A stretch of 64,000 nucleotides of DNA from Acidobacteriota bacterium (GCA_965217775.1 CBDCJH010000002.1:416001-480000), one strand, 5' to 3'; counted from the first letter of the stretch, positions 991 to 33,416 are shown. A program made the numbers and translations. The notes: generated by a model not told the origin, from the letters alone.

Positions 991-2898
991 AATCGCAAAT
1001 AGTCTAGCATCCTCAGGCTGGAAGCCGCCACGGTATTGGCCCGGACGGATTGCCTACTTTCGACACCGAAAATACCTTGACGGCTGGTGTCGGGGACTAT
1101 ACATCGAACGCCGCTCGTGACCGCATCCCAGTCTCTCTTGGTCGCAAATCCTTAGTTCAACCAGCCACGGAGGCCGAATTTCGAGATGCGTAAGAATGTC
1201 AACTTTTCTTCGATTGGGATCATCCTTCTTCTGCTGAGCTTCACCAGCACCTTCGCCCAAAGGACGACGGCGGAGATCGTGGGCACGGTGACCGATGAAA
1301 CGGGAGGCGTGCTTCCCGGCGTGGAAGTCGTGATCACCAATCTGGACACGGCTCTGACCCGAAGCACCTTCACGAACGATTCCGGAAACTACCACGTCCG
1401 CCTCTTGCCGGTCGGCCGCTATTCCGTCAGCGGCGAGCTGGTGGGGTTCAAGAAGCAGGAAATCTCGGGAATCATCCTCCAGGTGGACCAGGTGGCTCGT
1501 ATCGATCTGAGCTTGGAGGTCGGAGAGATCACGGAGCTGGTGGAGATGGAAGGCACGGCGCCCCTGACCAAGACCGACGACGCCGACATCGGGATGGTGA
1601 TCGAGAACCAGCAGATCGAGGAACTCCCTCTTCGAGGCGAGAACTCCTTCGTCGATCTGGTCTCGCTGGATGCCGGAGCCGCCAAGGTTTCCGGCCATTT
1701 GACGTCGATCTTCACCGATCTGTTCGGAGGCATGACGAACGCCTACGGCTCCCCCCCGGACGGGTCGAGGTTCATGATCGACGGCGTGGACGTGAAGGAC
1801 ACCGCCTATCCCGGATCGATATCCGTCTGAGCGGCAACGCCACCCGGGAGATGAAGTCGCAGATGAACTCCCATTCGGCGGAGTTCGGAATGAACAGCGG
1901 CATCCAGGTCAACATGGTGACCAAGTCCGGGACCAATGAAATTCACGGAAACGTCTTCTGGGACCATCGCAACTCGTCGGCGAACGCACGGAATTTCTTC
2001 GATCCGTCCCGGGAAAGCCGGGTCCGGGAGGGTCTGTCCGAAGTTCCCATCCTTCAATTCAACATCTTCGGCGCCTCGGTCGGGGGACCCATCGTCCAAG
2101 ACCAGACCTTTTTCTTCTTCAACTACCAGGGCACGCGGGAAAACAAGTCGCTCACTCGTCCGGCCAGCGTTCCCACCATGAAGATGAGAAACGGCGACTT
2201 CTCCGAGATACTTCCCGGAACGGTGATCAAGGATCCGTTGACCGGCCAGCCCTTCCCGGGCAACATCATCCCCGAGAACCGGATCCATCCGGTGGCCCGC
2301 AACATGATGTTCGGCGTGGGTGAGGTCAATCCGCTGTGGCCCGTGCCCGATCGTCCCGGAATCGCCAACAACATCCTGCCCAGCCGTGTCCAGGAGCAGG
2401 TCTTCGACCAGTACGTCTTCCGCGTGGACCACAGCCTCACGGACTCGGACAACATCTGTGTCCGATACATTTACGACAAACAGGACCGGGTCCTGCGCTA
2501 CAACAAGTTCCTTCACCAACTCCCCGACTACAACGACATTTTCTCCACGCCCGCCCACAATGCTCGAGTCGGTTGGACCAAGGTCATGGGGGCGACGGCG
2601 GTCAATGAACTGAAACTGGGCGTCAACCGCATGACGCAGACGCTGGAAGATGAGATTTACGGCACGCCGGTTCCGAAGCTCCTGGGAATCGAGGGGACGT
2701 CGACCCTGTTTCAATACAATCCCTGGGTGAACGTGGCTGGTTTCAGCCGGACCGGCACCCTCTTGAACGCTCCCAACAACCGTGTGGACAACACCTATCT
2801 CGCCGGAGATACGATCTCGTGGAACGTGGGTTCTCATGCCCTCGGATTCGGAGGCGAGTGGAGGGAGAGAGAGCAGAACGGGGGATCCCAGCCGATAC

Positions 2899-3012
2899 CC
2901 AACGGTTATTTTATGGGGCTTATATACCTAAGTGCCCTTGGCATACAGTTCTGGCACCACGCTTTCCCCAACGAGATACGTTCCGGTACCCAGGGCAAGA
3001 ACCCCAGCCCTG
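2899..3012 (-). ncRNA. Predicted TnpB omegaRNA core overlapping the tnpB 3' end and TIR, with putative guide 2899-2914
   Basis: Manual fold gives three stems and a loop GGGGUU complementary to the terminal AGCCCC; 5' boundary uncertain. Confidence 0.6.
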
Positions 3013-4103
3013 AGAATGTTCAGGGCGGCATTGTGGTCCCTGTCCATTCCAAGTCCGCAGGCCCTGCACCGGAAGGTTTCGCTCCGCCCTGGATCGTGGC
3101 GGGCGCCGCACCGGTGGCAGTCCTGCGATGTAAATGCGGGATTCACTTCTACGAACTTCCGACCGGCCCATTCTGCCTTGTACTGGATTTGATTCCGCAG
3201 AAGCCCCCAGGATTGCGTCAGTATTTCTCGATTCAGCCCCTTCTTCTTCGAGCCCTTCGTTACCATCCCTTGGATGTTCAGCTTCTCCACAGCGATCAGA
3301 CCGTGCTCACGAATGATCCTGCTGGAGAGACGATGGCAGGCATTACGGTTTCGGACCGATTCCCGGTGACGGAGCCGAGATAGCTGTACGATCCGCTTCC
3401 GTCTGGTCTTGGAAATCTTCTTGCACCTGGAGACCTTTCTCTGCTGCTTTCGGATCTCCCCCCAGTCCCGTCGATTCCGTTCGATCCTCTCACCCGTGGA
3501 CAGCACCGCTCGCTTGCGGACGCCCAGGTCGATCCCTACCGAAGACTCGCATTTCGGTAGCGGCGGCTTCTCCACCTCGTACGTCAGGTCCACATACACC
3601 CGGTTCGGCTTGCGGACAATCCGCAACGCTTTCAACGGGCATCCGTCCGGCAACGGCCGGGACGGAAATATCCGGATCGTCGGGAAGCCCTTGGGCCGGA
3701 TGGCGTAGCCCCGAGCGCGCTTCTTCACCAGGGTCGCTTTGGGGTCGACGACGTCGATGGTCTCCATCCTCGCCAGGGGCCGGAATCGAGGATACCCCGG
3801 CTTCTCCCCCGCCTTGCAGCGACGGAAAAACGCCTTGAAGGCCCGGTCCAACCGCATCAACATCCCACGCTCCGCCTTGACCGCCACCGACCCGAGCCCC
3901 TCCGGATCGTCCTTCCTCTGGGAGGTCAACCCCTTCATCTGATCGTACAGGGTCACGCCGCGTTGCTCGGATTCCCAGGCCGTCCTGCGTTCCTCCAGTG
4001 CAGCGTTGTACAGCCGATTCAGGATGGACCTCACCCCGTCCAACCGCCGGATTCCACCCTTGGACAGCTTGGCTCGGCACTGGATAGTTGCGTGGCCTTT
4101 CAT
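2928..4103 (-). CDS. tnpB: TnpB RNA-guided endonuclease, RuvC motifs intact
   Basis: LYNAALEER, AFKAFF..GEKPGYPRF, RuvC-I GIDLG, RuvC-II IAVEKL, zinc finger CHRC/CRAC, RuvC-III DRDHNAALNI. Confidence 0.95.
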   Translation of the reverse strand: MKGHATIQCRAKLSKGGIRRLDGVRSILNRLYNAALEERRTAWESEQRGVTLYDQMKGLTSQRKDDPEGLGSVAVKAERGMLMRLDRAFKAFFRRCKAGEKPGYPRFRPLARMETIDVVDPKATLVKKRARGYAIRPKGFPTIRIFPSRPLPDGCPLKALRIVRKPNRVYVDLTYEVEKPPLPKCESSVGIDLGVRKRAVLSTGERIERNRRDWGEIRKQQRKVSRCKKISKTRRKRIVQLSRLRHRESVRNRNACHRLSSRIIREHGLIAVEKLNIQGMVTKGSKKKGLNREILTQSWGLLRNQIQYKAEWAGRKFVEVNPAFTSQDCHRCGARHDPGRSETFRCRACGLGMDRDHNAALNILRAGVLALGTGTYLVGESVVPELYAKGT

Positions 4104-4116
4104 GGTCGGAATTGTA
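4104..4116 (-). promoter_or_regulatory. Putative -10 box (TACAAT) for a leaderless tnpB transcript
   Basis: Minus strand TACAAT-TCCGACC-ATG, 7 nt spacing, no Shine-Dalgarno. Confidence 0.4.
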
Positions 4117-5821
4117 ACCCATCAGCCTGAATTCTCGGCACTTACGTATATAATCCCCTATTTTATCTTCGCCCCCGTCTACACCGGTTATGCCATGGCG
4201 GATCTGATGCTGGGCTATCACCGGACGGCCATCACGGGCCGGGAAGACGGTTTCGGAAACTACAGCCACAACAACGTCAGTATCCACTTCAAGGACACCT
4301 GGAAGGTCAGCTCCAAGGTGACTCTGGACCTGGGCCTGCGCTGGGACTACTTCTCACCCTATACCGATTCGAGAGATCGGATCTCGCAGTTCGATCCGGG
4401 TTCGGGATTGCTGATTCTGGTGGGTGATCCGCGCCCGACCGACGCTTCCCACTATGCATTGCCGGCGGAATACGGCGTTGCCGAGCGCATGCTCTCTCCG
4501 TTGATCTCGGACGCGAGCTGGCCTCATGGAAGGCTGCTTCAGGCGCGCGACCTGAACGACTGGGCTCCGAGAGTCGGTCTGGCTTTTCGTCCCTTCGGCG
4601 GAAACGAGACGGTTGTTCGGGCGAGCTACACCCCTTTCGACACCTTCTACATGCAGCGGGTCGGTTTCAACAAGCCCTTCGTGAACCAGCAGACCTTCGT
4701 GAATCAGTTGGACGAGCAAGGTGTTCCCGTGTTCACCATCGACAGGCCGTTTCCTGAGGGCTCGGGTATTCCTTCGTCGACGGGGTAGGGATTTCAGCCG
4801 GATTGGGCCCACGGTTACAACCAACAGTACAACGTCACCGTGGAAAGAGCCCTGTCTCAAACCGCCGTCTTCGAGCTCGGTTACATCGGCAACAAAGGCA
4901 CCAAACTGATCCGCGACGGGAACCTGAACCTGGCGGCTCCCGGTCCCGGCAGCCGCGTGAATCGAAGGCCCTATCAGAATTGGGCGACCGTCGGCTGGAG
5001 ACAGCCCACTGCCAACTCCTCCTATCACGGGATGAGAGTCAATCTGAAGCAGGGATTCAGCAACGGTTTCCTGGGCAACATTTCCTACGTCTATTCCAAG
5101 TGGCTCGACTGTGGTGGAAACAACCTGTTCGCCGACCTGGGGGACAGCGTGAAGAGGAATCCCTTCGACTGTGCGGCGGAAAAAGGGCGCAGCGCTTCCG
5201 ATTACCGGCAGCGGTTCGTCTACAATTTCGTCTACCAGATTCCGGTCATGCGAGGATCCGGCCACGGACTTGCGGGAGCCATCCTGGGTGAATGGAACAT
5301 CAGCAGCATCGGGACCTTCTCTTCGTCCGGGGCGGTCGACGTCGGCAGTCCATTCGATCCCGACAACACGGGAGCGGCCAATCGGCCTGATCTCACCGGG
5401 AATCCGAACAGTGGGCCCCGAAACGCCCAGCAGTGGTTCAATACCAAGGCGTTCACGCGGGTTCCGAATCCGGCGGAAACGGGCGTCTACCGTTTTGGAA
5501 ACGCCGGCCGCAACATCATCGACGGTCCCGGCTGGACCACGGTCGACTTTTCGGTCTGGAAGTCCTGGCACGCGGCGCAGGAAGCAGTACGGATCGAGTT
5601 TCGAGTCGATTTCTTCAACATCACCAATCACACGAACTTCGATCTCCCCAATCGTAATTTCGGAACGGGAGCCTTTGGAACGATGGGCAACGCCGGGAAT
5701 TCGCGGCATCTTCAATTCGGCCTGAATGTCCAGTTCTAGAGATGTCGTCTCAGGCCCGGAAAGAAAACCTGTCGGCAAGTCCGTCTCGAATGGTCTCGAA
5801 TAAGAAGGAGAAGTTGAAGAT

Positions 5822-7624
5822 ATGCTCTCTGGAGTTGAAAATCTGCTTTCTGTAAGCGAGCGCTCTTTCCCGTTGATCCTGACCCTCCTTTTCGGTGCTA
5901 CCATGGTTCTCGCCATGGGGCAGAACGAGCGATCGAAACCTGAATATCAGGTGAAGTTCAAGATTCACAATCTGGTCCCCATGCAGGACGGAGTCCATCT
6001 CTCGGCGGATGTCTACCGTCCCGACGCTCCGGGCAAGTTCCCCGCCGTGCTTCTGATGACTCCCTACAACAACATGAGAGGCGGAAACGACATGGAGCAC
6101 GCCCTGTACTTCGCCAAACGCGGGTATGCGGCCGTGCTGGTCGACTTGAGGGGACGGCACGATTCCGAAGGCGTATGGGACCCGTATGTGAACGATCCCA
6201 GGGACGGGTTCGATACCCACGAGTGGATCGGCAAGCAGGAGTGGTGTGACGGGAATCTGGGAACCTACGGGTACTCCTATCCGGGATTCACCCAGATCAT
6301 GCCGTCGGTTTACGGCAGCGAGTACCTCAAGTGCATGGTCCCGTCGGTCTGCCAGCAGACCAACTTCGGGCATCTCTACAACGACGGCGTGATGCAGCTC
6401 AACGTCACCTTCGTGGCCGGGTTCTTCTGGGCCGGTCACACCATGCAGTTTCTGCACGGACCGGGAATTACCGAGAATCCCATACTCGATTGGAACAAGT
6501 TCTTCTGGCGCCTGCCCCTGATCACCGCGTTGGACGATATCGCGGATCTGCCCTGGTTCCGGACCTGGATCAAGCATCCCACCTACGACGACTATTGGAA
6601 GGGCTACGGGGTCAAGGAGAAGTACGGACAGATCAAGGCGCCCGCCTATTTCATCACGGGCTGGTACGACAACCTGGTGCGTGAGAATTTCCGAAACTTC
6701 AACGGCTTCCGGAAAGAGGGCGGTTCCAAGGCGGCCCGCCAGACCAAGCTCCTGGTGGGACCCTGGACCCACAGCGTCAACAAACGCATGGAGACCTCGA
6801 TCCTCGATTTCGGTCCCGACATCTACGTCGACATCCTGGATGAACATGTCCGGTGGTACGACTACTGGCTCAAGGGAATGAAGACCGGCGTCGACACCGA
6901 AGCGCCACTCAGGATTTTCGTGATGCGCGCCAACAAGTGGCGGGACGAGTGGGAATGGCCGCTGGCCCGCACCAAGTGGACCAAGTATTACCTCAATAGT
7001 GGAGGCTCGGCCAATTCACTCTACGGCGACGGCACACTCGGCACTTCCAAGCCTTCGTCGGATTCCGCTCAGGATACGTTCGATTACGATCCAGCGAATC
7101 CGGTGGAGACCGTTGGAGGCCAGACCGAATTTCCGGCCAGCCAGAGAGGCCCGCAGAACCGGCTGGTGGTCCAGAGGCGGCAGGACGTCCTGATCTATAC
7201 GTCGGACGCGCTGTCGGAACCGTTGGAAGTCACCGGGCCCGTTGAGGTCAAGCTGCATGCGGCCTCCAGCGCCGTCGACACCGACTTCACGGCGGTTTTG
7301 ACCGAGGTCCTGCCTGACGGCCGGTCCGTCCATATCAGCGAAGGGGTCGTTCGAGCCAGCTTTCGCGACTCTCTGGAGAATCCGACCCATATCGAGCCGG
7401 GCAAGGTATACGAATACACGATCCACATCTGGGAGACGAGCTGGGAGTTTCAGCCGGGAAGCAAGATTCGGCTGGAGATCAGCAGCAGCAATTTCCCCCG
7501 CTGGGCCCGTAATCTGAACACCGGTGCCGAGTTTGGCATGACCTCGGAGATAAAGGTCGCCACGCAGACGATCTATCACAACGAGATGTATCCCTCGCAT
7601 GTGATTCTCCCGGTGATCCCGTAG
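5822..7624 (+). CDS. CocE/NonD family serine hydrolase, copy 1
   Basis: PMQDGVHLSADVYRP, nucleophile motif GYSYPG, GWYD, GPWTH, C-terminal RLEISSSNFPR. Confidence 0.92.
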   Translation: MLSGVENLLSVSERSFPLILTLLFGATMVLAMGQNERSKPEYQVKFKIHNLVPMQDGVHLSADVYRPDAPGKFPAVLLMTPYNNMRGGNDMEHALYFAKRGYAAVLVDLRGRHDSEGVWDPYVNDPRDGFDTHEWIGKQEWCDGNLGTYGYSYPGFTQIMPSVYGSEYLKCMVPSVCQQTNFGHLYNDGVMQLNVTFVAGFFWAGHTMQFLHGPGITENPILDWNKFFWRLPLITALDDIADLPWFRTWIKHPTYDDYWKGYGVKEKYGQIKAPAYFITGWYDNLVRENFRNFNGFRKEGGSKAARQTKLLVGPWTHSVNKRMETSILDFGPDIYVDILDEHVRWYDYWLKGMKTGVDTEAPLRIFVMRANKWRDEWEWPLARTKWTKYYLNSGGSANSLYGDGTLGTSKPSSDSAQDTFDYDPANPVETVGGQTEFPASQRGPQNRLVVQRRQDVLIYTSDALSEPLEVTGPVEVKLHAASSAVDTDFTAVLTEVLPDGRSVHISEGVVRASFRDSLENPTHIEPGKVYEYTIHIWETSWEFQPGSKIRLEISSSNFPRWARNLNTGAEFGMTSEIKVATQTIYHNEMYPSHVILPVIP

Positions 7625-28328: not shown

Positions 28329-29418
28329 CGCCGGTCGGATCGGAACCGGTATCCATTCGTATTCGAATCAGTCGGGAATGACCGGCAGGACCACATGAGA
28401 CGGGTAGCGGTCATCGTGATAGATGGTCTGGGTCGCGACCTTCATCTCCGCACTCTTGCCCAATGGATTGCCGGTGTTCAAATTCCTGGCGAAACGTGGG
28501 AAGTTGCTGCTGGAAACCTCCAGCCGGATGCGGCTTCCCGGCTGAAACTCCCAACTCGTCTCCCAGATCTCGATTGGAATCTCGTAGACCCTTCCGGGTT
28601 CGATCAAGGTCGGATTTTCCAACGATTCCCGGAAGCTGGCCCGGCGGATCCCCTCACTGATGTGAATTGCCGTTCCATCCGCCAACACCTCGGTCAAGAC
28701 GGCAGTGAAATCGGTGTCGACCGCGCTGGAAGCGGCATAGAGCTTCAACTCGATGGGGCCCGTGACCTCCAGCTTTTGGGTCAAGGGCTCACTGGTATAG
28801 ATCAGGACGTCGTCCCGCTTCTGGACGGGCCGGCGGTCCTGAGGCCCTCTCTGGTCGGGAGGAAACTCGGTCTGTCCTCCCACGGTGGGGACGGGGTTGG
28901 CGGGATCGTATTGGAAGCTGTCTTGAGGAGCACCGTCAGGCGGGGGTGACGTTCCCAGGGTGCCGTCGCCAGGGACGGAGTTGGCGGCTCCGCCGCTATT
29001 CAGGTAGTACTTGGTCCACCGGGTGCGGGCCAGGGGCCATTCGTGCTCGTCACGCCACTTGTTGGCGCGCATCACGAACAGCCGGATGGGGGCCTCCTGG
29101 TCGATGCCGTTGGGGATGCCCTTGAGCCAATAGTCATACCATCGGACGTGCAACTCCTCGACGTCGAGAAGGGAGGATTCCCCAAAGTCGATCACCCAGT
29201 TGTCGTAGGTCTGATTGTAGGAATGGGACCAGGGTCCGACCAGGATCTTGGTCTGCTTCCGGGCCAACTCGGATCCCCCTTCCTCTCGAAAGCCGATGAA
29301 CTGCCGCCAGATCTCATGTTCCAGGTTGTCGTACCAACCGGTCAGGAAGTAGGCGGGGACCTGGATCTGGTCGTACTTTCCCTTGGGGATTATATACGAA
29401 AGTGCCGAAACCTGAGCA

Positions 29419-29601
29419 TTAACGCCGGTTCCGTGGCCGGTCTATCCATCTGATATTCACGGGCTGGACCAATGCACGGGCCAGCTCCTCGAAGTCTGCT
29501 TCCACGCGCATATCCGGTTCCAGTTCGGCCTTGGTCGGTTGGTAGGAATCCTTGACCAGTTCGATGGTGGGATGTTGGGGATTGTGTCTGGGTTTCTTCA
29601 T
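29419..29601 (-). CDS. 60-aa hypothetical IS passenger protein
   Basis: ATGA overlap with the preceding passenger ORF; ends 8 bp before the TIR. Confidence 0.55.
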   Translation of the reverse strand: MKKPRHNPQHPTIELVKDSYQPTKAELEPDMRVEADFEELARALVQPVNIRWIDRPRNRR

Positions 29602-30103
29602 GCGGCCCTCGGCATCCTAGGTTGTTTCCCCTCAAAGTAGTCTTCCGCCGTGTAGATTTGAATCTTGGGCAGGTCCATGAAGCGTCCGGCGTTGACGGCG
29701 GCATTTCTCATGCCGTTGGTCACTCGGTCTCGAAAGCAGGTGAAGATGCCGAGATCAGCTCCGGCCTGTCGACGTGCGCCGTTGAAGGCTTGGACGTGTC
29801 CGGGATTGGTAGAGCCGCCTTTGACCTGAGAAACGATGTCAATGAACCGGCCCTTGCGGATCGGGAGCCGTCCCACGCCGTCAATTCCGCCATCCCGTCT
29901 CTGGATTCGGTTCGGCTCCGTACCCTCCACCAGAGCAGCAGCCCACCTCTCAAACCGGAATTTATCGATGCTGGCAAGCTCCTGAGCGTGTGTGATGGTA
30001 TGGGGAAGGCCAATGTCTTGGGTGTGTTCCCAACGGATTCATCCGGGACATCCTCCCGCATGACTTCAAGGTGGTCTCCAAAGCTCAGTCGATTTTCGTT
30101 CAA
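29598..30103 (-). pseudogene. Internally deleted DNA methyltransferase-restriction endonuclease passenger gene
   Basis: NRLSFGDHLEVMREDVPDESV (MTase start, cut before DPPF) then, in another frame, DKFRFERWA..DGGIDG..IVSQVKGG (Mrr-like nuclease). Confidence 0.72.
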
Positions 30104-31050
30104 CCCACCAAATCCTTGTAACGCAGCCGCTTTCCCACCATCCGGTCAGCGACCAGGGCCATTTGATCCAACGTGTCCATGCGCCTTAGGTTGTGACGTG
30201 CGGCAAACTCTCCAACGTATCGGTCGGTGTGCTGTTCCGAGAAGTGGTGAAAGGTTCCGTGGTAACTCCGCTTCAACATCGACCAGAACGATTCGGCTCC
30301 GTTGGTGTGGCAGTTGCCTTTGACGTACTCCTGAAGAGAATGCTTGACCGTCTCGTGATTGACAAGCCGGCCGTAAGAGGTTGAATCGTCGGTGTAGATC
30401 TTGGCATCTTCTCCCACGTGCTCCAAGACGAAACGGGAGAGGGTTTCAGACTTGGTGTCAGGGACGACTCGGGCCGACACTTGGTTGGAGGGGCGATCTT
30501 TGACGGCAGCCACGGCCGTCTTTCCAACGGCTCCACGTCCCTCCAGTTTGGCGCGTTTGGCCTTCGGCATATTCTTCCGCTTTCCGCCGAGATACGCCTC
30601 GTCAGCCTCGACCGGGCCGGAGAACAGGGCCATTCCAGTCAGGTTCAGACCTTTCCGTATCCGGTGAGCAAGGTGCCAAGCCGTCTTCTGTGTTACGTCC
30701 AGGTCACGATGCAGCTTCATGGAGGAAACGCTCTTGAGGCTGGTAGTAAGGAGGTAGGTCGCAAGCAACCAAGTCTGATAGCCGAGTTTGGAGGACTGCA
30801 TAACCGTCCCGACCCGGACGCTGAACCGCTTGCCGCAATCGCGGCAACGATACGGCATGGAAGGATGCTTGGCTCCGGTCTGGACGTTGGTGGAGCCGCA
30901 ATGGACGCAACAGACTTCCTCCGGCCACCGCCGCTTTATGAACCATTCCTCAGCGGCTTTATCGTCGGGAAATCTCTTGAAGAATCCGCGCAGTGAAAGT
31001 CCCTCTCGGAACGCCTTTCCGGGTGCCTTGTTCCGTGTCTCGTAACTCAT
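30100..31050 (-). CDS. IS1595-family DDE transposase
   Basis: Zinc ribbon CVHC/CRDC, QKTAWHLAHRIR, VEADE, YTDD, HTNGAESFWS; GGAGG RBS. Confidence 0.96.
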   Translation of the reverse strand: MSYETRNKAPGKAFREGLSLRGFFKRFPDDKAAEEWFIKRRWPEEVCCVHCGSTNVQTGAKHPSMPYRCRDCGKRFSVRVGTVMQSSKLGYQTWLLATYLLTTSLKSVSSMKLHRDLDVTQKTAWHLAHRIRKGLNLTGMALFSGPVEADEAYLGGKRKNMPKAKRAKLEGRGAVGKTAVAAVKDRPSNQVSARVVPDTKSETLSRFVLEHVGEDAKIYTDDSTSYGRLVNHETVKHSLQEYVKGNCHTNGAESFWSMLKRSYHGTFHHFSEQHTDRYVGEFAARHNLRRMDTLDQMALVADRMVGKRLRYKDLVG

Positions 31051-31075
31051 TGCAGCCTCCTGACTTACAAGACAT

Positions 31076-31104
31076 ATTCTATAGGAAAGTACCGGGATTG
31101 TCAA
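31076..31104 (-). promoter_or_regulatory. Sigma70 promoter of the IS1595 transposase
   Basis: TTGACA-17 nt-TAGAAT on the minus strand just inside the TIR. Confidence 0.7.
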
Positions 31105-32093
31105 CCCCTACGGGAAACCTTTTCGGCACTTTCGTATATAATCCCCTTTCCCTTGGTTCCGTAGGACTTCCAGTAGTCGTCGTAGGTGGGGTGATCCAAC
31201 AGCGTCTTGACCCAGGGACGGTCCACCATCTCATCCAGGGCGGTGTAAAGGGGGAGCCGCGAGAAGATCTCGTTCCAGTCCATCAGGGGATGGTCGAAAA
31301 TGCCGGGCCAGAAGGCCATGCCCCGGTTGACCCAGAGGAACTCGGCCACGAAGATCACGTTCAATTGGGGGATGCCGTCGTTGTAGAGGTGACCGAAGTT
31401 GGTCTCCTGATTGGCGCTCGGCATCAGGGCTTTCAGGTTGGGATGCTGGTAACGGGCCGGCATCACCTGTGTGAAGCCGTCGTAGGAATGCCCGAAGGTC
31501 CCGATCTTCCCGTTGCACCAGTCCTGCTCGGCCAGCCACTTCTGAGTGTCGAATCCGTCCTGCGGGTCATTGACGTAGGGGTGCCAGACCCCCTCGGAGT
31601 CGTGACGGCCGCGGAGATCCACCGTGACCGCGGCATAGCCCCTTTCGGCGAAATAGACCGCCCGGCTCACCACGTCGGGACGCATGTTGTTGTAGGCGGT
31701 CATCAACATCAAAGTGGGGAACGGGCCGGGTGCATCCGGCCGGTAGATGTCAGCCGAAAGATGGACTCCATCCCGCATCGGCACCTTGGCGTCGAGCGAA
31801 AAAACGACCTTGTGCCCGGGTTGGGAGAGTTCGGCCTGTCCACAGCCGAAGACCGTAAACAGTAGAGAGGAAAACACCATCGTCACTATACTGGATCGCA
31901 GGTTGGTCTTCGCCTCGAACATCAGGCCGTCCTCCTGGAAGTGGACCGGTTTTGCGTTGACTTCGTTCCGGGCGGCATGGAGCCGCCAAAGATGTTGCTC
32001 GAAAAGCTGTTTTCTGGTCTCAGAGTCATCAGAATATATCATCCGTGCTGCCCCCCTGCCGATGGTAGTTGTCCAGCAGTCAGGAGACTTTCC

Positions 32094-33416
32094 ATGCATC
32101 GATTTTCAACGCTTATTCTGGGACTGATCTTCTTTGGCGCCGGCAGCATCGAGCCATCTCTGGCCGGGAAGCTGCGTGCCTCTTGCGTCAAGGTCGACAT
32201 CACTCCCGGCAAGCCTGTGCTGATGCAGGCCTATCCGAGGCCGGGTCCCTCGGAGGGGGTGTTGGATCGGATCTACCATCGGGTCGTTGCCCTGGACGAC
32301 GGCGAGACCCAGGTCTTTCTGATCTCCAGCGATCTGGCACTGATCCGTTACGACGTCTACCGCGAGTTCTCCCAAGAGCTGGCAAGGGAGACGGGGATCC
32401 GGCCGGAACAGGTCTGGTGGAATACGACCCAAACTCATTCCGGCCCACAGGTCGGCCTTGGACCTGAGGATTCGGGCACTTTCAAGGCCAACCCGGACTA
32501 CTCTGCCTGGCTCAAGAGAGCACTGATCGACGCTATTGTGGAGGCCCGAGAGAAACTGGAGCCGGCTCGCCTCGGCGTGGCGACCGGGATGTCCATGGCC
32601 AACATCAACCGGCGGCCCCGGGAGATCGACGGCAGCGTGCCCTATGTCGGATTGAATCCCGAGGGTCCGGTGGATCGGCAAATCGGACTGATCCGTCTGG
32701 AGCGAGCGGACGGATCCCCACTGGCTCTGATTGCGAGTTATGCCATGCACGGCACCGTCCTGCCCGTGAACGGTCCGGAGTTCCTCTTGATCAGCGGAGA
32801 TGCCCAGGGGGTCGTTGCCGAGTACGTGGAAGAGAAGACCGGAGCCCCCCTCCTGTTGATGAGCGGCGCCGAGGGGGATGTCGCTCCCATCTACAGCACC
32901 ATCACCATGCCCCATGCGAAGAACCAGGGGCTGAATCACCTCAGCCAGTTCAAGGTTTTGTTGGGCAATCGAATTCTGGCGGCCAATCGATCGGTTGCGG
33001 CAACGGCGACAGAGGTCAGGCTGTGGACAGGACGAATCATGATCGAGACTCCGCTTAAGGAGAAGCAGACCGTTTGGTACCAGGAGGCGATGCGCGGCTT
33101 GAAGCGGGAAACCGATGGCGGGGTGACGCTGGTCAGGATCCCGGTCGACTTCCTCAAGATCAATCGGGAGATCCTGCTCTGGGCGGCGCCGCTGGAACTC
33201 TTCGGCGAGATCGCCATGAAGGTCCGGGACCGGTCTCCGTTCCCCTACACCTTCTTCTATGGTTTGAACAACGGGTATCTCGGTTATCTGACCACCAGGA
33301 AGGCGTTCGCCGAGGGAGGCTTCGAGCCCCGCATTTCCCCGTATACCGAGCAGGCCGAAGAAGACTTTACCAGCGGGGTCTTGAACGCCGTCTGGGCGTT
33401 ACCCGGACGGGAGTGA
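32094..33416 (+). CDS. Neutral/alkaline ceramidase-like protein
   Basis: KVDITP, TQTHSGP, NINRR, YAMHGT, GAEGDV, NGYLGY; signal peptide. Confidence 0.72.
   Translation: MHRFSTLILGLIFFGAGSIEPSLAGKLRASCVKVDITPGKPVLMQAYPRPGPSEGVLDRIYHRVVALDDGETQVFLISSDLALIRYDVYREFSQELARETGIRPEQVWWNTTQTHSGPQVGLGPEDSGTFKANPDYSAWLKRALIDAIVEAREKLEPARLGVATGMSMANINRRPREIDGSVPYVGLNPEGPVDRQIGLIRLERADGSPLALIASYAMHGTVLPVNGPEFLLISGDAQGVVAEYVEEKTGAPLLLMSGAEGDVAPIYSTITMPHAKNQGLNHLSQFKVLLGNRILAANRSVAATATEVRLWTGRIMIETPLKEKQTVWYQEAMRGLKRETDGGVTLVRIPVDFLKINREILLWAAPLELFGEIAMKVRDRSPFPYTFFYGLNNGYLGYLTTRKAFAEGGFEPRISPYTEQAEEDFTSGVLNAVWALPGRE

Follow-up and report, generated by a model that had tools for sequence, protein, structure and literature searches.

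A non-autonomous IS1595-type transposon carrying an RNA-guided TnpB module was identified at positions 2915-4158 of a 64,000-nucleotide stretch of Acidobacteriota DNA (GCA_965217775.1 CBDCJH010000002.1:416001-480000), which as a whole is called the window here. Insertions of this and related TnpB elements carry a G just 5′ of the upstream target-site duplication (position -1) in 24 of 25 cases and an A as the first duplicated base (position +1) in all 25, on the tnpB-5′ side only. The G|A pair is not selected by the transposase. To judge from the aligned sites, it is probably a short motif resembling a transposon-associated motif (TAM), which is read by TnpB and marks the insertions that persist. 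The complete account, in which a module of TnpB and its guide RNA (omegaRNA) resides in a non-autonomous IS1595-type transposon, G|A acts as TAM-like motif and homing governs the survivorship of insertions, is considered rather probable.

TnpB is thought to work since the IS605/IS607 transposase always inserts beside a TAM. In a first-pass annotation of the same DNA, the transposase was held not to provide a target motif of the classical IS605 type here, which was borne out, and a TAM puzzle was posed. This puzzle largely dissolves and is replaced by the question why only insertions flanked by G|A persist.

A one-sided motif at the insertion sites

For the compilation of insertion sites, every TnpB element with both ends was taken from this genome (G000) and from the same-genus genomes G004-G006 and G008 and read in tnpB orientation. 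Element boundaries were called by a script maximising duplication and end matches. The copies of genome G007 were left out because they had no clean duplication or were 5′-truncated. Rows were also dropped for a decayed 5′ end (L021), for lack of a matching duplication (L023, L028, L032 and L014) or as 5′-truncated (L022, L042, L016, L017 and L079), and one counted row (G000 C2:1186780), in which the 8-mers do not match, was scored on the upstream 8-mer. As control, a similar duplication-plus-end-match script was applied to IS1595 in five genomes, four of which yielded a total of 17 clean insertions; an 8-bp duplication is present in 17 of 17 clean IS1595 copies.

In the first 23 insertions, position -1 was G and position +1 was A without exception. 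Two insertions were added, of which L080 reads G|A and L077 reads A|A, and an extra flank at a loose end in the public sequencing run X1 also reads G|A, its duplication being uncheckable. Position +2 was A or T in 23/23 and position -2 was G in 14/23, and no constraint was found among the 23 insertions from +9 onward. The opposite, guide-side end of the same 23 elements, when flipped, showed G|A in 5. The motif is kept across sub-families that are 71-97% identical in DNA, including ones with ends matching at 11-12 of the first 12 bases, which argues against asymmetry of the ends as the source of the one-sided pair.

At the control insertions, G was found at -1 in 6/17 sites in transposase orientation and in 5/17 when flipped, and A at +1 in 9/17 and 6/17, respectively. 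G|A occurred at 9 of the 34 control ends; in a one-sided Fisher test against these ends, the first 23 TnpB insertions differed with p = 5e-9 when the pair was scored and with p = 5e-8 when the G was scored without the A. Of the 17 IS1595 sites, 8 had G|A on one side or both. Among 12 copies of the cognate 1762-bp insertion sequence, no more than 4 had G at -1. Target preferences of DDE transpososomes are usually two-fold symmetric. Since the bias is one-sided, tied to tnpB orientation and absent from the cognate insertion sequence, it is not the product of a symmetric DDE transpososome.

The first-pass annotation had assumed that the insertion sites share no fixed motif, which the alignment contradicts. 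Its observation that the two duplications at hand, TATTTTAT and TTTCCCTT, lack a common motif is literally true; it compares unlike things, because TTTCCCTT flanks an IS1595 element without TnpB. An alignment of the flanks of many insertions had been named there beforehand as a check, and the outcome was largely the one set against its own view, G|A being common to the sites.

The element, its alleles and its guide RNA

The features on which the argument depends are the following.

2915-4158, minus strand: non-autonomous IS1595-type element of 1244 bp, with tnpB and the guide-RNA scaffold as its sole cargo
2915-2936: inverted repeat at the tnpB-3′ end; the final TnpB codons and the 3′ terminus of the scaffold are encoded within it
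4137-4158: tnpB-5′ inverted repeat; over a length of 24 nt, 23 positions agree with the ends of IS1595 copies
2907-2914 and 4159-4166: left and right copies of the 8-bp target-site duplication, TATTTTAT on the plus strand
4159-4167, minus strand: right duplication copy with the next base, reading G|ATAAAATA in tnpB orientation; the conserved TAM-like pair consists of the G complementary to 4167 and the A complementary to 4166
2928-4103, minus strand: tnpB, 391 amino acids, with the stop codon (2928-2930) inside the inverted repeat
2915-3012, minus strand: omegaRNA-like scaffold of about 98 nt, predicted to contain a pseudoknot, a long stem in two parts and two hairpins, the second of which covers the inverted repeat
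2899-2914, minus strand: predicted 16-nt guide template, comprising the left duplication copy and 8 nt of flank; it would shift to 2898-2913 if the invariant A is scaffold position -1
29385-31146, minus strand: autonomous IS1595-family element of 1762 bp with duplication TTTCCCTT at 29377-29384 and 31147-31154, without tnpB
30100-31104: IS1595 transposase gene with matches to Pfam DDE_Tnp_IS1595 (PF12762, E = 2e-38) and Zn_ribbon_IS1595

The 22-nt end sequence has four matches in the window with at most 3 mismatches, compared with 0 in 100 shuffles, and the two matches that do not belong to the TnpB element bound the element at 29385-31146. The TnpB element interrupts a gene for a TonB-dependent receptor. 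In 5/5 same-genus genomes with this gene, the orthologous site is empty, and 2915-4158 is a true insertion with an 8-bp target-site duplication because the two flanks in these relatives directly adjoin and have exactly 8 nt in common. The sole long open reading frame (ORF) in the element is tnpB, and neither a TnpA nor a DDE_Tnp_IS1595 transposase is encoded inside it. With 22-bp inverted ends, an 8-bp duplication and no TnpA, it does not belong to IS200/IS605; its ends and duplication are those of an IS1595 derivative. The tnpB-5′ end is nearly identical to IS1595 ends, and the element is therefore a non-autonomous IS1595-type transposon carrying a TnpB module.

The genome (6.43 Mb in 2 contigs) contains 12 full-length TnpB elements of 95-99% mutual identity as well as diverged and truncated copies. 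Four full-length reading frames for IS1595 transposase are present in it, all in separate copies from the TnpB elements, and the 1762-bp insertion sequence occurs in five copies that are 98-99.9% mutually identical. The element at 29385-31146 is likely the source of transposase in trans for the TnpB element.

A Rfam scan of 2700-4400 returned nothing above threshold; the sole hit, COG3860, was taken as chance (16.8 bits compared with a gathering score of 42.5). The receptor frame is already split near 1830-1851 (1186-1830 and 1851-2914), upstream of the insertion; a stop codon, a shift of frame or a fault of the assembly could be the cause.

The empty and the occupied allele differ just 5′ of the protospacer. 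At the empty site, the sequence matched by the guide is immediately preceded on its 5′ side by G-A, while the occupied junction reads C-A at the same place because the inverted repeat ends in C. The difference between G-A and C-A is a self/non-self distinction of the kind a TAM gives. The first-pass annotation had already noted this difference, and its upstream contexts were reproduced as GCGAAG, the reverse complement of 4167-4172, for the empty allele and ..AAGCCCC for the occupied one. The precise empty allele with TATTTTAT, a joint from 2906 to 4159 that skips 1252 nt with 8 nt shared, was detected in contigs of 4/4 public runs, including a 1217-nt contig of an RNA library; in run X1, an empty-allele contig was present alongside a contig bridging the occupied junction. 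A footprint joint retaining two duplications was not listed among the run contigs, which can miss rare forms. Moreover, after position 4625 the contigs of all four runs contain 12 extra letters compared with the window, which is either a strain difference or a small assembly deletion.

Three solutions of the TAM puzzle had been offered in the annotation. A relaxed TAM with the inverted-repeat end excluded comes closest, in that only two positions are invariant and the repeat end puts C in place of G. An AT-rich TAM supplied by an excision footprint is disfavoured, as the duplication varies at its final positions and no two-duplication joint was listed; a footprint TAM at +6 to +8 was also rejected as the main motif, because the bias there is only partial and the same bases would flank the target in the occupied allele too. 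Action at the element's own junction is likewise disfavoured: this junction is the guide's sole genomic match, and targeting of it was rejected on account of the C at -1.

For the analysis of the guide-RNA scaffold, the last 180 nt of 13 elements were aligned. The predicted fold contains 31 pairs with 99% of cells paired, and 12 of the 31 pairs are changed on both sides; 0 of 500 shuffles scored as high, and slid controls were 31-47% paired. In the pseudoknot, the loop of the first hairpin (GGGGUU, 3000-3005) pairs with the last six bases of the element (AGCCCC, 2915-2920), about 90 nt apart. It is 96% paired, a value scored on the same sequences from which the pseudoknot was drawn, and in L024 and L027, which are related and possibly represent one event, both strands are changed (GGGAAU with AUUCCC). 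That the scaffold ends at the terminal CCCC, as had been assumed, is supported by this covarying pseudoknot, in which the last 6 nt take part. The guide must then derive from the flank, and its predicted string agrees with the one given earlier, ATAAAATAACCGTTGG, the reverse complement of 2899-2914, which joins the duplication at 2907-2914 to 8 nt from the flanking TonB-receptor gene. Each copy of the TnpB element has different flanks.

In the omegaRNA of ISDra2, passages of PMC10097598 place the pseudoknot strand at -6 to -2, paired with the loop of stem 1, and leave one free base before the guide, which fits the invariant A at position -1 here. This analogy suggests that the invariant A may close the TAM and at the same time occupy scaffold position -1, with the guide starting from +2. 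The invariant Arg79 of this TnpB aligns with Q80 of ISDra2, the reader of TAM base -2*; this alignment and the free-base geometry of ISDra2 would be weak grounds for the +2 register.

Compared with 4137-4158, the guide-side repeat (2915-2936) has three differences from the IS1595 consensus, one of which replaces a U-U mismatch of the pseudoknot by a G-U pair; this suggests an adaptation of the guide-side repeat to its additional function in the RNA scaffold. Contig depth in X5, a run from an RNA library, was higher over 2939-3169. It was dropped as evidence of expression, because contig depth cannot rank parts of a gene and the same rise was present in DNA runs. A 152-nt contig of X5 that leads from the scaffold into the flank of another copy is not evidence of a transcript end.

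The TnpB protein contains the Pfam domains OrfB_IS605 (PF01385, 6e-18) and Cas12f1-like TNB (PF07282, 3e-25), both above cut-offs. In seven sub-family representatives of 73-86% amino-acid identity, the RuvC residues D192, E273 and D354/D356 and the zinc-finger residues C329, C332, C346 and C349 are invariant (7/7) and align with the ISDra2 motifs. The sequence features of the TnpB family, namely a RuvC core with TNB domain, a D-E-D triad, a C4 zinc finger and a structured omegaRNA, were thus all found. An intact 391-amino-acid ORF was present in 10 of the 12 copies of this genome, and ORFs of 385-403 amino acids in 15/15 further elements (14 in related genomes and the diverged copy L013 of this genome). 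The ratio of nonsynonymous to synonymous substitution rates (dN/dS) against the window copy was 0.14-0.23, and synonymous divergence was lower in the last approximately 90 codons, which overlap the scaffold, in 5 of 6 comparisons. Because of the invariant residues, the long ORFs and these ratios, the TnpB looks functional from its sequence. By protein search, the clade (E <= 1e-70) was detected in 3 of 401 genomes of the phylum, all of one genus; in the collections searched, close relatives in genome contigs came from same-genus Acidobacteriota metagenome-assembled genomes only. A protein-alignment scan of metagenome contigs gave only two relatives of 27% identity, which could not inform the analysis of insertion sites.

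Among natural proteins of solved structure, ISDra2 TnpB (PDB 8bf8/8exa/8h1j) comes closest, with E = 3.5e-32 for an alignment that covers residues 31-375. The two proteins agree in the order of their domains, in the catalytic residues and in the zinc finger. The scaffolds have the same topology, with a hairpin loop pseudoknotted to the bases before the guide, and in both systems the guide originates from the sequence that flanks the 3′ end of the element; scaffold length is about 98 nt here and 116 nt in ISDra2. In contrast to the element described here, ISDra2 has no inverted ends and no duplication, and its Y1 TnpA has the target TTGAT, which doubles as a 5-nt TAM; here IS1595-type ends and an 8-bp duplication are combined with a motif of two fixed positions (G and A) that is not imposed by the transposase. 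For IS200/IS605 elements, passages of a 2026 review (PMC13565253) list the absence of inverted ends and of a duplication, a Y1 TnpA and insertion 3′ of a fixed motif of 4-5 nt.

TnpB inside DDE-type ends and its mobilisation in trans are already known. Passages of Altae-Tran et al. 2023 (PMC10691335) report inverted terminal repeats around all six DDE-associated TnpB branches, as well as solo TnpBs that share almost the same ends with elements encoding a transposase, from which movement in trans is deduced there. In these passages, the architecture is the same as here, the comparison being one of architecture and not of position in their DDE-1 to DDE-6 tree. The main text of that paper contains 0 occurrences of IS1595, and the passages found in it hold no TAM or insertion-site analysis for the DDE branches, on which the supplements may bear. 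In this connection, passages of the review name ISL2, IS630 and IS1031 (PMC13565253). In the literature searched, a one-sided two-base insertion-site motif not imposed by the transposase was not found; supplementary files, which lay outside the search, may hold end alignments.

Fanzor1 and Fanzor2 are TnpB homologues in duplication-making transposons, and for Fanzor in eukaryotic DDE transposons the same review assigns the 5′ duplication to the TAM, of which it forms a part, and places the 3′ duplication in the scaffold (PMC13565253). This parallels the invariant first duplicated base here and maybe its dual role. The duplications of Fanzor are short and fixed (TA, TTAA), whereas here they are 8 bp long and variable, with the first base alone fixed, and most of the duplication must lie in the guide; a pseudoknot, said in the passages available to be lacking in Fanzor1, is present. 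With IS1595 insertion sequences the element shares inverted ends and AT-rich 8-bp duplications of the same kind as in the transposase-bearing copies of this genome. It differs from them in that an RNA-guided nuclease module replaces the transposase and one inverted repeat doubles as coding sequence and scaffold.

Survivorship as a probable explanation, and its rivals

In the proposed mechanism, an IS1595 DDE transposase encoded elsewhere in the genome would move the element in trans, and each copy would then read its guide from the 8-bp duplication and flank, with the scaffold ending at the last base of the element. The motif recognised by TnpB would be very short and span the upstream boundary of the duplication, with G outside and A as the first duplicated base. 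Due to C-A at the occupied site, the element would not cut itself. The precise empty allele would be cut, and recombination with an occupied copy would restore the element. Insertions beside G|A in the right orientation would persist because TnpB cuts the empty allele and recombination copies the element back, and others would be transient. The restorative-homing model from which this account is borrowed is reviewed in passages of PMC13565253. By analogy with that model, survivorship would be the simplest account of the motif. Consistent with it are the C beside the guide's sole match, the empty alleles in 4/4 runs and the greater divergence of the TnpB copies compared with the insertion-sequence copies (mean mutual identity of 97.6% versus 99.05%). 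A more specific form is put forward tentatively, as possible: a compact, ISDra2-like TnpB of 391 amino acids would have evolved a two-base TAM, whose A comes from the duplication and is reused as last scaffold base, and would act as a ratchet, in that correctly oriented insertions beside G|A would be the sole ones to be regained after loss and hence to accumulate.

Several points weigh against this reading. One insertion, L077 (identical with L052; G006:C1 ~2600570-2601950), has A at -1; it exceeds the length of its sub-family by about 150 bp, the match to TnpB in it covers no residue before 39, and the orthologous empty sites in 8 genomes have G in 5, A in 1 and T in 2. Weaker biases within the duplication, A at +6 in 15/23 and T at +7 in 18/23 (p = 0.008 and 0.003 versus the IS1595 controls, uncorrected), are unaccounted for by the G|A model. 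The invariant positions number only two, and their role as TAM is predicted. The register of the guide, starting at +1 or +2, is drawn by analogy with ISDra2. The empty alleles in the metagenomes may never have been occupied, and the contigs give no allele frequencies. According to passages of PMC13565253, the break left by a DDE cut-and-paste transposon is repaired anyway, so that a homing nuclease would be of little benefit to it. In addition, the control set is modest (17 insertions), and all TnpB elements come from one genus, which makes a shared property of the transposition machinery possible.

Such a property, a target preference of a different or modified IS1595-type transpososome that owes nothing to reading by TnpB, would be helped by the end sequences which these elements have in common and by the mild enrichment of G|A at the IS1595 control ends, where 9/34 compares with about 12% expected from base frequencies. 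It is nevertheless unlikely, since the bias is strictly one-sided (23/23 versus 5/23) where DDE preferences are usually symmetric, persists where the two ends match at 11-12 of the first 12 bases, and is missing from the cognate 1762-bp insertion sequence, which has G at -1 in 4/12 although its ends are 23/24 identical to the tnpB-5′ end. The motif could also be set at insertion if TnpB and its RNA helped to choose or orient the site, for example by binding a GA-flanked AT-rich site and recruiting the transpososome. The side of the motif is indeed set by tnpB orientation, and guide-RNA-directed transposition with TnpB-family proteins has been engineered, according to the part available of 10.1101/2025.08.27.672191. 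A guide that is copied from the flank after insertion only cannot direct a new site, though, no transposase-interaction domain is evident in a protein aligned with ISDra2 TnpB over residues 31-375, and the catalytic residues are intact, unlike in known recruiting forms, which makes this explanation very unlikely.

Highly improbable, too, is a role of TnpB as DNA-binding regulator or in another host function, with G|A needed for binding or expression and not for cleavage of the empty site. TnpB-derived repressors exist (passages of PMC13622181), and the sole genomic match of the guide is the element's own junction; against this stand the RuvC D/E/D residues and zinc finger invariant in 7/7 representatives and the C in place of G at -1 of that junction. 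A promoter role for G|A was rejected for its position, as G and A sit 9 and 8 bp upstream of the element, in the would-be promoter spacer, with no -35-like conservation at -8 to -3. Finally, the boundaries were set by a script and 1 of 23 rows has no matching duplication, so the pattern might be put down to chance or to boundary calling. This is scarcely credible given the Fisher p = 5e-9 against 34 control ends from a similar script and the confirmation of the 8-bp duplication by empty sites in relatives and metagenome contigs. Furthermore, a distance of 8 nt separates the G from the called boundary, and a longer duplication cannot include it, C preceding the downstream copy.

Under the survivorship account, 24 of 25 surviving insertions carry the motif on the correct side without a transposase supplying it, so that they amount to a natural TAM read-out without an experiment, and this suggests that the nuclease decides which insertions persist. 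Inflexible TAM recognition has been proposed to limit pairings of TnpB with DDE transposons that make variable duplications, according to passages of the review (PMC13565253). If the account is true, it would be population-level evidence of TnpB homing shaping the fate of a cut-and-paste transposon, and a DDE transposon inserting almost anywhere AT-rich would be served by a natural editor scaffold that is nearly TAM-less. A two-base motif on a nuclease of 391 amino acids would be of interest to genome editors; about half of the IS1595 control sites (8/17) would be compatible with it. Retention and insertion preference can be told apart directly with two genes and an RNA of about 100 nt.

IS1595 relatives in this and related genomes

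In the same-genus genome G005, five TnpB-element matches were found, four of them full-length and closely related. The sole IS1595 transposase match there at E <= 1e-30 is partial and has an internal stop, and the TnpB copies of G005 may currently be without a cognate transposase. Outside the window, the genome studied here contains three elements with related GGGGATTA.. inverted ends, at C2:321834-326282 (4449 bp), C2:1021965-1023591 (1627 bp) and C2:3648353-3649883 (1531 bp). The 1627- and 1531-bp elements encode IS1595-type transposases that are 59-66% identical to that of the window, and the 4449-bp element has a 46%-identical transposase match with an internal stop.

Within the window, the IS1595 copy carries passengers at 29419-29930, namely a 110-amino-acid fragment of a restriction endonuclease resembling Mrr_cat and NA-iREase1 (E = 1e-7 and 2e-4) and a 60-amino-acid ORF without Pfam match. 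The gene split by this copy (28368-29267 and 31101-32099) appears, judging by the visible resemblance of its halves to the 600-amino-acid ORF at 5822-7624, to be a disrupted paralogue of that ORF.

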